Source of the DNA: an uncultured Chlamydiae bacterium
Lineage (GTDB): Bacteria > Chlamydiota > Chlamydiia > Chlamydiales > SM23-39
Direction of reading: 5' to 3'
NCBI GenBank assembly: GCA_963730605.1
Contig: CAVSSM010000001.1
Span: 32,001-96,000 of the forward strand
Length of the DNA stretch: 64,000 bases
Below the pieces are notes generated by a model, which saw only the letters and a list, made by a program, of their open reading frames with translations, was not told the origin of the DNA and ran no database searches. The translations under genes and the position numbers were made by a program. Shown piece by piece: positions 14,802 to 16,925 of the stretch. The stretch's first letter is position 1. The number at the start of each line of letters is the position of its first letter.

Positions 14802-15788
14802 ATGGCAGTACAATTAAGTCGCATTTCCGGAGCGCAAACTCTAAAGCGGCCTATTCCCCAAGAGGCGAGGGCCTCTTCCCCCACTTCCAGAGTCTCCAAA
14901 GCCTACAGGGCCGTGGAAAAAGGGTGGAGCTACGGAGGAAAATCGCTGACAGTGACTCGGCATATCTTGAACGCGGGCCTGCGCGCCTCCCTTTGGGAAG
15001 GGAAAGAGACGACGGGAAAAGTCCAAAGCGTCATCTCACGCTCCAAATTATTCGCCGCGCTAGGTGTTGGTTTCAATCTGGCCACCTTCTCTACCCATGT
15101 GGGAAAAATACGGAAAAACTTCGAGCGGAGCGACATTGAGGGGCTCTCTCTTGCGCTGCTCACTTTTACCATTCTGATTGGAGACACCCTCGATTCTATA
15201 TTGACTTCTGTCAATGGAGCGATCGAGACTCTCGCCCTAACGCCCAGCCAATGGATTGCCTCTATCGGCTTGCCCCTTGGATTTGCCATCATGAGTTTGG
15301 GATCCCTCTCGCGCGCAGTGCGGCTTTATCATCTCCATCAAGCATCGAACGCGCTGGCCCATGTTGACTTTATGAAGACATCCGGCATGAGGCCGCAGGA
15401 AATCCATAGAGCGGTCACCCGATTTTTGAAAACCTTAAGGCTCGATGACCCGAAAGAGCTGGCCGCAATAGAGAGACATACCACAGACGGTGCGGCAAAG
15501 CTTTTGAAAGACCTCTCCTCTTCTTTGGAGAAGATCGACTCGTCCAATGAAAAGAACATGGCAGAAGTTGTGGAGACCTTTCATCGCATCCAAAGACACC
15601 TCCGCGAGGAAATGGCGATCCAAATAGCTTACAGCGCGACAAACCTCCTGCTCTTTACGTCGCTTTGCCTCATGGTCGCTTCCGCCGCAACGGCTCTGCC
15701 CTACATCCTCTTGGGGACGGCCTGGACCGCAAGGCTGCTCATCCAGGCCTATCAGGACCTCCAGCAAGATACTCTCCCTTACGCATAG
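14802..15788 (+). CDS. Hypothetical membrane protein (Inc-like hydrophobic hairpins)
   Basis: Ser/Pro-rich N-terminus, hydrophobic blocks and a C-terminal bilobed hydrophobic segment. Confidence 0.65.
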   Translation: MAVQLSRISGAQTLKRPIPQEARASSPTSRVSKAYRAVEKGWSYGGKSLTVTRHILNAGLRASLWEGKETTGKVQSVISRSKLFAALGVGFNLATFSTHVGKIRKNFERSDIEGLSLALLTFTILIGDTLDSILTSVNGAIETLALTPSQWIASIGLPLGFAIMSLGSLSRAVRLYHLHQASNALAHVDFMKTSGMRPQEIHRAVTRFLKTLRLDDPKELAAIERHTTDGAAKLLKDLSSSLEKIDSSNEKNMAEVVETFHRIQRHLREEMAIQIAYSATNLLLFTSLCLMVASAATALPYILLGTAWTARLLIQAYQDLQQDTLPYA

Positions 15789-16249
15789 ATCAGAAGAAGA
15801 ATCGACATAGCGACCATTCCCAGATCCTCGGTCAAGGTCACAGTCGAAAGAGGCACATCGAGGATAGTACCCATGCAGGCGCACTTGACATTAAGACTTT
15901 TCATCAAAGCCAAGATCACCCCAAGAGCCCCGGCGCCCAGAATAAGGATGGTCAGGATCGCGGTCGCAGTCGGCAGAAAAAAAGCCAGGTAGCTTAAGCC
16001 TAAAACAAGCTCGATTAAAGGGTAGGCAAGAGCATAAATGCGGCTTTTTTTTGCGATGATATCGTACATCTGGAACCCATCGGCAAACTGGATGGGATTG
16101 AAGAGTTTCAGAAGAGCGAATTGACAGAGGAAAAATCCCATGAAATAGGACATCCAGCTCATCCAGCCTTTCTGGGAGCCCCAAACAATGGCCCCAGCTG
16201 CAATGGCAGCGATGAGTATCAGACAAACTAAGGGCCAATATTTTTTCAT
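15779..16249 (-). CDS. MauE/DoxX-like membrane protein with CxC motif
   Basis: Several TM helices plus FADGFQMYDIIA, YPLIEL and CACMGT...PLSTVTLTEDLGM, the pattern of MauE-family proteins. Confidence 0.75.
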   Translation of the reverse strand: MKKYWPLVCLILIAAIAAGAIVWGSQKGWMSWMSYFMGFFLCQFALLKLFNPIQFADGFQMYDIIAKKSRIYALAYPLIELVLGLSYLAFFLPTATAILTILILGAGALGVILALMKSLNVKCACMGTILDVPLSTVTLTEDLGMVAMSILLLIYA

Positions 16250-16260
16250 GAAAACTTATG

Positions 16261-16653
16261 TTACCAAAATGAGGATATGTCCAGCTCAAGAATATAGGGC
16301 TCCCCAAACTCCTTCTGATAGAGGATCGAGGTCAAGCCCCTCGCCTCTTCCATGAAAGCTTTTTCCTCGGGCCGAGATTTCCTTGCCGGGGTGTGATGCA
16401 GGTATTCCCCGAAAATGTTCAAACAGTCGCGCGTGTACTCCACTGTGTGGAGGATGTGCTCATGCCAAGCTTCGTCGATATCCGCCGCCGGCGCGAGCAC
16501 CTTTTCGGGGTGCCTTGTCAAAAGAATGAGGAAATTCTTATATCTCCTCACCGTCTCTTGAGCATCCTGCTCACCCCATTCCTTGAGATCTATCAACCTT
16601 TCCTCAAGAAACCTAAGATCCAATTCCTTTATCCGGGCTTCTTGGGACAGCAC
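16261..16653 (-). CDS. GRDP-like (glycine-rich-domain-containing protein-like) His-rich protein
   Basis: YKNFLIL...P..DIDEAWHEHILHTVEY..DC...FGEYLHHTP. The GTG start is preceded by AGGAGG. Confidence 0.7.
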   Translation of the reverse strand: MLSQEARIKELDLRFLEERLIDLKEWGEQDAQETVRRYKNFLILLTRHPEKVLAPAADIDEAWHEHILHTVEYTRDCLNIFGEYLHHTPARKSRPEEKAFMEEARGLTSILYQKEFGEPYILELDISSFW

Positions 16654-16925
16654 TTGGCCTCCTGCATCTCTCCTAATGCGGCCCTATGCAGCGCTTCCTC
16701 GGAAAGTTCCTTGAAATTCATGGGGCGGTTATGGAGGCGGATGACCCACTGGTCCTTCTCTTCGACAGCAACGCGCACATCGAGCGCATGGGGGATTTTC
16801 TCCATCCCCATCTCCTTCAGGGCGGCTTTCGGGTTTACCTTGAGCTTATCTTTGAAAGCCGGATCTTTCCAAGCGCGTATGTTGATTTTCGCTTCCGTTT
16901 GACGACGATCGAATGGTTCGGACAT
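16629..16925 (-). CDS. NHLP (nitrile hydratase-like leader peptide) RiPP precursor-like protein
   Basis: RAWKDPAFKDKLKVNPKAAL and ELSEEALHRAALG leader end, then the short tail EMQEAKCCPKKPG. SD AAGGAAGG. Confidence 0.8.
   Translation of the reverse strand: MSEPFDRRQTEAKINIRAWKDPAFKDKLKVNPKAALKEMGMEKIPHALDVRVAVEEKDQWVIRLHNRPMNFKELSEEALHRAALGEMQEAKCCPKKPG

Follow-up and report, generated by a model that had tools for sequence, protein, structure and literature searches.

The locus and its conserved gene pair

The window, by which we mean the whole stretch of 64,000 nucleotides from an uncultured Chlamydiae bacterium that was analysed, carries three closely spaced genes on its minus strand (Table 1). 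The first, g1, encodes a precursor-like protein of the NHLP type with two adjacent cysteines in its short C-terminal tail; the second, g2, encodes a GRDP-like protein, and the third, g3, a MauE-family membrane protein. The first two reading frames share an overlap of 25 nt, and 11 nt separate g2 from g3. An original prediction, made from the letters of this DNA, had described the three genes as coupled in just this way, and the overlap, the gap and every motif that it quoted were found again in the open reading frame (ORF) data: RAWKDPAFK, ELSEEALHRAALG and the tail EMQEAKCCPKKPG in g1, DEAWHEHILH...C...LHH in g2 and CAC in g3. Comparison across genomes shows that the NHLP-type precursor and the GRDP-like protein are a strictly conserved, translationally linked module, and that the unit is this pair rather than the trio.

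Table 1. Features of the locus, with positions counted from the first letter of the window
Feature	Position	Strand	Description
g1	16629..16925	-	98-aa NHLP-type precursor-like protein; leader, residues 1-85; tail, residues 86-98 (EMQEAKCCPKKPG)
Tail ('core') coding region of g1	16632..16670	-	Cys92-Cys93 codons at 16647-16652
g2 translation-initiation region within g1	16651..16662	-	GGAGG at 16658-16662; start codon at 16651-16653
g2	16261..16653	-	130 aa, GTG start; GRDP-like / DUF1399 / UCP032817-like; soluble, all-helical
g2 signature region, residues 58-89	16387..16482	-	From an alignment of 20 sequences
g3	15779..16249	-	156-aa MauE-family membrane protein; Cys123-Ala-Cys125 at 15875-15883
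Intergenic region upstream of g1	16926..17120	.	Dispersed repeat modules; within a stretch of about 1.6 kb that is missing from a congener

The profile searches that had been proposed along with the prediction placed g2 and g3 above the Pfam cut-offs. The g2 match is to PF07173 GRDP-like (37.1 bits, cut-off 22.7) and covers only positions 95-143 of the 143 in that profile; PF27765 is precomputed on all 31 g2 homologue clusters, and the protein atlas names the family 'UCP032817-like'. For g3 the match is to PF07291 MauE (48.4 bits, cut-off 27). The g1 protein aligns to the NHLP leader model TIGR03793 over nearly its full length (positions 2-76 of 77, E 1.3e-12) with a score, 47.4 bits, that lies below the cut-off of 50.9, and it matches PF02979 NHase_alpha at 33.3 bits (cut-off 27.2). 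No NCBIfam model matched g2 or g3, and PADLOC, which models anti-phage defence systems, returned no family for the three proteins and two neighbours at E up to 0.01. The genome to which the window belongs (2.2 Mb in 12 contigs, 83% complete) has a single NHLP gene and a single GRDP-like gene.

The pair recurs well beyond this genome, among environmental chlamydiae. A locus scan with the g2 alignment, taking one genome per species, matched 189 stretches, 129 of them confirmed relatives, and the 80 best of these gave 78 loci. When all ORFs of these loci were searched with the window proteins using phmmer, g2 was present in all 78, relatives of g1 in 19 and g3 in 2. At 12 loci (L003-L013 and L023) the arrangement of the window is reproduced exactly, the end of a Cys-Cys NHLP gene overlapping the start of the GRDP-like gene, and at L002, which is cut by a contig end, the 3′ end of g1 is still present. 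The reciprocal search, with g1 against 401 genomes of the phylum, found some NHLP in 37 and a Cys-Cys orthologue (E < 1e-38) in nine, the window's own genome included, although none among four genomes of the same genus; the overlapping GRDP-like gene stands beside the Cys-Cys orthologue in all eight loci of this search. Since these eight are the same sequences as eight of the 12 overlap loci, there are 13 distinct loci in all, 12 of them in other genomes. The related locus records are labelled Chlamydiae, Simkaniaceae or Rhabdochlamydiaceae. Two further records, L013 and L023, carry the label Verrucomicrobia, and are probably mislabelled bins, because identical sequences occur in two genomes (G364 and G260) that are placed in the same order as the window's genome.

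The flanks of the pair differ from locus to locus, and the three flank proteins of the window match only L002 and L003 among all loci. The pair is best explained as a self-contained two-gene cassette. The overlap itself is no assembly slip, because the same 25 nt, with the g2 start equally placed, are found at the 12 further loci. The positions singled out for a check at the level of reads (16645-16660) fall within a 470-nt contig from a soil run that spans 16222-16691 without any difference, although that run is possibly the window's own source sample.

The third gene does not travel with the other two. MauE adjoins the pair in three cases only, the window and its two nearest relatives (the 2 of 78 loci noted above), whilst homologues of g3 are present in 70 of the 401 genomes of the phylum, as a widespread single-copy gene that is mostly unlinked to the pair. 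Three genomes (G327, G238 and G356) carry both the pair and MauE, far apart or on separate contigs, and two of the same genus as the window (G241 and G197) possess MauE and lack a Cys-Cys NHLP. The syntenic site of G241 (L112) can be compared directly: there MauE and the homologue of the 367-aa gene of the window are direct divergent neighbours with no room between them, whereas the window (16260-18020) has about 1.6 kb extra, made up of a 138-aa ORF, repeats, g1 and g2. The pair, the repeat-rich spacer and the 138-aa ORF therefore amount to an insertion or deletion of about 1.6 kb. The Cys123-Ala-Cys125 motif of g3 is invariant in all 22 aligned rows, whether or not the pair is present. The part of the original prediction that took the trio as the conserved unit is not supported: g3 is a resident chlamydial gene and no part of the conserved module, though with a gap of only 11 nt it is probably co-transcribed with the pair in the window's lineage. 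A 250-nt contig from a soil metatranscriptome lies over the MauE gene (16009-16256) with 11 differences, so that it represents the MauE gene of a relative; its presence in an RNA library is no proof of transcription, and it says nothing of the pair.

The surroundings add little to this picture. Five neighbouring ORFs in the span 13828-19278 (13828..14646, 14802..15788, 17244..17660, 17884..18987 and 18994..19278) have no Pfam match and lie on both sides of the three genes; the lack of a match is common for chlamydial lineage-specific membrane proteins. The divergent 138-aa ORF (17244..17660) was considered as a fourth component and rejected, its only homologue being in L003. Upstream of g1, the 195 bases of the intergenic region hold repeat modules of about 38, 38 and 103 nt with 58 matches across the genome, several at 90-96% identity; the modules match no Rfam family, and contigs from public runs break at their borders. 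An Rfam scan of the region gave two chance-level matches only, and a promoter and terminator scan did no better than on shuffled sequence.

The Cys-Cys tail and the missing maturation genes

A search with g1 of a collection of 5.8 billion proteins gave 44 matches at E up to 1e-5, of which 43 are of the Cys-Cys type and one, at 41% identity, is an NHLP of another kind. The vicinal cysteines, whose loss in other genomes would have counted against the original prediction, are kept in all 43 Cys-Cys-type precursor clusters, over which the tail has the consensus G-E-x-Q-E-A-K-C-C-P-K-x-P-x. In the AlphaFold2 model of g1 (mean predicted local distance difference test score, pLDDT, 69.4) residues 7-38 and 76-83 are helical, whilst tail residues 89-96 fall below a pLDDT of 50. 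We considered the Cys-Cys pair as a positional homologue of the metal-binding cluster of nitrile hydratase and rejected this, as g1 aligns to the nitrile hydratase alpha subunit on either side of the cluster, at about residues 54-86 and 125-187.

Conservation of this tail has to be read with care, because it also encodes the start of the next gene. The GGAGG site of g2 is made by the g1 codons for Gln-Glu-Ala, and its start codon consists of the last base of the Lys91 codon followed by the TG of Cys92. The position of this start is constant over all 13 loci, where the codon is ATG, GTG or TTG, and GAG is replaced in two of them (L011 and L012). One could therefore suppose that there is no functional core at all, that the tail is kept mainly as ribosome-binding site, start codon and first residues of g2, and that g1 is a small protein resembling nitrile hydratase alpha with an unrelated function; a start codon at that position does force a Cys or a Trp in g1. 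We regard this as very improbable. The second cysteine and the proline that follows are unnecessary for initiation, yet Cys-Cys-Pro is identical at 13 of 13 distinct loci, where residues 3-4 of the overlapping g2 vary. Changes that are synonymous in g1 replace residues of g2, with Pro for Ser3 in L009 and L011 and Lys or Tyr for Gln4, and the N-terminus of g2 is variable in the wider family, as judged from an alignment of 20 sequences. These patterns of substitution argue that the tail is also under selection for itself. The presence of Cys-Cys in every one of the 43 clusters points the same way, as do the cysteine tails of those NHLPs whose GRDP-like neighbour stands in another gene order, without such an overlap (see below).

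The leader ends in an unusual manner for an NHLP system. In 42 of the 43 clusters a single Gly is followed by Glu, Asp, Gln, His or Lys (...RAALG-E in the window, ...AAGE in the consensus), and GG occurs in one. The original prediction had remarked that YcaO, LanM, radical SAM and C39 peptidase genes, the usual company of NHLP precursors, were missing from the neighbourhood. For most of these the remark stands and can be extended: no C39 ABC transporter or HlyD, LanM or YcaO gene lies within 3.5 kb at the 13 Cys-Cys loci, radical SAM not having been searched for; the window's genome, 83% complete as it is, has no C39 peptidase, no YcaO and no ABC transporter above the NHLM (ABC2) cut-off; and C39 and YcaO are both absent from five carrier genomes that are 94-98% complete, one of them a single contig. 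The absence of LanM is less clean, since a search for the LanM-type DUF4135, made in the five carrier genomes only, gave a weak match (45.8 bits) on another contig in one of them. The window's genome has one MNIO gene, also on a different contig (C7). Apart from that weak LanM-type match, the searches found none of the genes that usually mature and export NHLPs, which shows that precursors of this type can exist without them.

The GRDP-like family and the role of g2

What g2 might do with such a tail is suggested first by its own residues. The protein carries the family signature D-x-D-E-x-W-H-x-H-I-L-x-T-x-x-Y ... H-H-x-P; across the 20 aligned sequences, which include members at 37-40% identity, D60, H64, H66, T70, Y73, H87 and P89 are invariant and D58, E61, W63, C77, Y84 and H86 nearly so. 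The invariant residues other than the proline are polar and look like metal ligands or an active site. The AlphaFold2 model is confident (pLDDT 85.5, predicted template modelling score 0.83) and has six helices, and no counterpart was found for it: Foldseek against the PDB gave nothing at E up to 0.001 (best E 1.1), VIA-align reached a Z of at most 4.1 among 48,161 chains (none of 5 or more), and the best PDB match to the sequence profile had an E of 1.3. A relationship to HvfC/DUF2063 was considered and rejected (hhalign probability 0.24). Predicted complexes of g2 with zinc and g1 scored 0.49, 0.47 and 0.48 where one control scored 0.29, which misses the required gap of 0.20 and speaks neither for nor against binding.

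More distantly related GRDP-like genes of chlamydiae lie in recognisable peptide-maturation clusters. In L014 the GRDP-like gene stands beside a LanM (754 bits), an NHLP precursor, an NHLM HlyD and a C39 ABC transporter; L019 has the order NHLP, GRDP-like, NHLM HlyD, ABC1 (860.6 bits), ABC2; and in L028 the GRDP-like gene is followed by an NHLP precursor and adjoins ABC2. L021 (2220-6728, the same sequence as L090) has an NHLP ending in ...ECCCS and two GRDP-like genes in tandem, together with a 322-aa protein without a family, a protein that binds FAD/NAD(P) and an unknown one of 336 aa. Leaving aside the Cys-Cys type, all eight distinct NHLP loci beside a GRDP-like gene (L014, L016, L018, L019, L020, L021, L028 and L088) have cysteine in the short tail. 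Unlinked NHLP loci have it in 8 of 17 cases, a difference that is only suggestive because the loci are interrelated. The two members without an NHLP in the tree group described below are directly preceded by small, unverified ORFs that are not NHLPs and end rich in cysteine (L015, 5665-5808, and L027, 5813-5965); the hosts are a Rhabdochlamydiaceae and a Legionellales metagenome-assembled genome. In two chlamydial genomes, G031 (contig C3) and G099 (contig C1), the NHLP matches number 12 each, and many of them form tandem arrays, such as that at G099:C1:1853969-1857532.

One relative is a fusion. In L017 (3270-4649) the GRDP-like domain forms the C-terminal part of a 459-aa protein that also has a winged helix (PF21084) and a TOMM leader-binding domain (TIGR03882, 73.9 bits) and that is encoded next to an NHLM ABC2 gene; the contig ends before any precursor is visible. 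In fused cyclodehydratases it is the catalytic YcaO domain that holds the place behind the TOMM docking domain. The GRDP-like domain occupies that same place in L017, and the architecture therefore suggests a module directed at the core, possibly catalytic, rather than a second leader binder. We favour, with somewhat less than even confidence, the view that the GRDP-like protein is a tailoring enzyme for the Cys-Cys tail, probably working through metal-dependent chemistry. The fusion also bears on the alternative that the GRDP-like protein is a non-catalytic partner of NHLPs (a chaperone, an immunity or neutralising protein, or a leader-binding adaptor) that holds the precursor in the cytoplasm unmodified. 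The tight coupling of the genes would fit such a partner, as would the lack of a recognisable enzyme fold and the occurrence of related genes with LanM-type, exporter-only and Cys-Cys-type systems, in which the NHLP leader is the shared element. However, in L017 a second binder would be redundant alongside the winged helix and the docking domain, and what is invariant is a set of His, Asp and Tyr residues, not a hydrophobic surface. Members outside Chlamydiota, moreover, have no NHLP neighbour and yet have cysteine-rich tails of their own. A purely binding role seems to us improbable.

Several observations weigh against the tailoring-enzyme interpretation. Catalysis by the GRDP-like protein is something we infer purely, because g2 matches no known enzyme or fold. 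No GRDP-like gene lies within 1.5 kb at 17 of 21 other chlamydial NHLP loci, a count that sits no better with a general NHLP partner, and the association may have arisen only once, because in a quick tree of 83 rows (proteins above 260 aa excluded) a single group of 24 takes in all 22 that are NHLP-linked (support 86, not starred). Outside Chlamydiota, 54 GRDP-like loci had no RiPP (ribosomally synthesised and post-translationally modified peptide) enzymes among their neighbours. Part of the tail's conservation serves translation of g2, given that the Gln-Glu-Ala codons are its GGAGG and Lys with Cys92 its start. Finally, the pair is unlike classical RiPPs in that the whole precursor is conserved (59-90% identity) and single-copy, and in having no double-glycine motif (GG, GA or GS), no protease and no exporter.

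The wider family is large and varied. With a family profile, 14,576 representative clusters were recovered at E up to 0.001, and 6,650 when the limit was set at 1e-10. Of the 150 best-scoring representatives 123 are small (230 aa or less), and 29 of these have at least two cysteines after the domain, some in Gly-Cys repeats and one with the ending ...DCCPFPWC, although g2 itself ends in ...LDISSFW and has no tail rich in Cys or Gly. Fusions in the same set are mostly tandem GRDP-like repeats, and only P0040, the L017 protein, carries a RiPP-type domain; a search for longer fused forms with the 20-sequence alignment gave none at E up to 1e-8, which is weak evidence. Fusions seen once each join the domain to a SUMO-like Rad60-SLD (P0046, 948 aa), a protein-tyrosine phosphatase (P0063, 248 aa) and a chorismate lyase (P0067, 298 aa). 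The neighbours at the 54 non-chlamydial loci are heterogeneous, with methyltransferases in six, TPMT in two and cyanobacterial NB-ARC/TPR regulators in six. It is conceivable, though we hold this only tentatively, that GRDP-like/DUF1399 proteins are a new metal-dependent enzyme family, distributed from bacteria to plants, whose members modify the cysteines of flexible peptide tails. In that case the pair in chlamydiae would be the minimal founding example, a new RiPP-like class with one precursor and one enzyme, no exporter or leader protease, and an intracellular product, in bacteria that are themselves obligately intracellular.

A different use of the same residues has also to be considered. 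The Cys-Cys tail of g1 and the histidine site of g2 could form a non-covalent metal or redox module that binds or passes on a metal, such as copper or zinc, or reducing equivalents, in the window's lineage alongside MauE. A vicinal cysteine pair on a disordered C-terminal tail, next to the invariant His/Asp site of g2, is what such a module might look like; the overlap would fit roughly equal amounts of the two proteins, and all of g1 is conserved, beyond the tail. MauE is adjacent at three loci. At L011 (2716-5471) a complete cluster of the bufferin type lies directly upstream of the pair, with a cysteine-rich 120-aa precursor candidate, a BufB MNIO (326.7 bits, cut-off 310), HvfC/DUF2063 and DoxX, and bufferins chelate copper (PMC11626156). 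However, of the 13 loci only L011 has MNIO and DUF2063 adjacent to the pair, and the window locus has neither; the three loci with adjacent MauE, again out of 13, are all close kin, and in three genomes that have both, MauE is far removed from the pair. The g2 protein matches no known metal-binding family, and the L017 fusion to a RiPP leader-binding domain fits an enzyme better. We consider the metal or redox module improbable.

If the GRDP-like protein is indeed a tailoring enzyme, the following sequence of events can be envisaged. Translation of g1 would give the NHLP-type protein of 98 aa, its body helical and leader-like and its last 13 residues a disordered tail containing Cys-Cys-Pro, and g2 would be translated from a ribosome-binding site and a start codon within the codons of that tail, giving a soluble helical protein in which the invariant Asp, three His and Tyr form a putative metal or active site. 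We infer that this protein would bind the tail and chemically modify the vicinal cysteines, an oxidative or metal-dependent change being the most plausible chemistry. The product would be a modified small protein that probably stays in the cell with its leader attached, or is processed by general enzymes, since no C39, no YcaO and, with the one weak exception, no LanM was found in the carrier genomes searched.

Comparison with known systems

Full-text literature searches found no paper that describes the NHLP/GRDP-like/MauE architecture, returning only plant papers, unrelated papers or none, in agreement with the predicted lack of a described system, and none that links the GRDP-like/DUF1399 family to ribosomal peptides. 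The nearest relatives are the NHLP-leader RiPPs, which comprise TOMM, class II lanthipeptide and proteusin-type systems with NHLM export (Haft et al., 2010; PMC2887384). With these g1 shares an NHLP leader-like domain and a short tail containing cysteine, and related chlamydial loci combine NHLP and GRDP-like genes with LanM and the NHLM HlyD, ABC1 and ABC2. The pair differs from them in having no double-glycine site and no C39 or YcaO, and in a tail that is conserved rather than variable. That founding paper notes that some NHLPs occur without known enzymes, but the accessible part of its text does not mention the pair's sole dedicated partner, the GRDP-like protein, and does not contain the term 'glycine-rich' (PMC2887384).

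Bufferins, the copper-binding RiPPs of MNIO (DUF692), DUF2063 and DoxX clusters, resemble the pair in being ribosomal peptides that bear cysteines and in having a membrane protein of the DoxX/MauE clan in or beside the cluster (PMC11626156, PMC12452194). They differ in that the pair in the window has no adjoining MNIO or DUF2063, the GRDP-like protein is unrelated to HvfC/DUF2063, and no signal peptide motif was seen in g1. The text of the MNIO survey, as far as it is accessible, mentions neither NHLP nor Chlamydiae (PMC12452194).

MauE has a role in the maturation of methylamine dehydrogenase. The g3 protein shares with MauE (PF07291) the match at the level of Pfam and an invariant Cys-x-Cys in a membrane protein, but g3 is a single-copy gene that is widespread in chlamydiae and as a rule not linked to the pair.

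A further comparison is with plants. The pair offers a large uncharacterised family, plants included, a simple and testable partner: a 98-aa candidate substrate and a 130-aa protein on one 0.7-kb piece of DNA make a minimal test case that could reveal what the domain does to cysteines. GRDP1 and GRDP2 of plants have been characterised by growth and stress-tolerance phenotypes rather than by biochemistry (PMC4299439). AtGRDP1 and AtGRDP2 (DUF1399) have the same Pfam domain, PF07173, as g2, and AtGRDP2 has a C-terminal glycine-rich domain with interspersed cysteines and the consensus [CG]GGGCGG[GC] (PMC4299439). Whereas the plant proteins are about 790 aa long with further regions (PMC4299439), g2 is the domain alone in 130 aa, with the cysteine peptide as a separate gene product; the Cys/Gly stretch of the AtGRDPs has its match both in the Cys/Gly tails of bacterial members and, in trans, in the Cys-Cys tail of g1.

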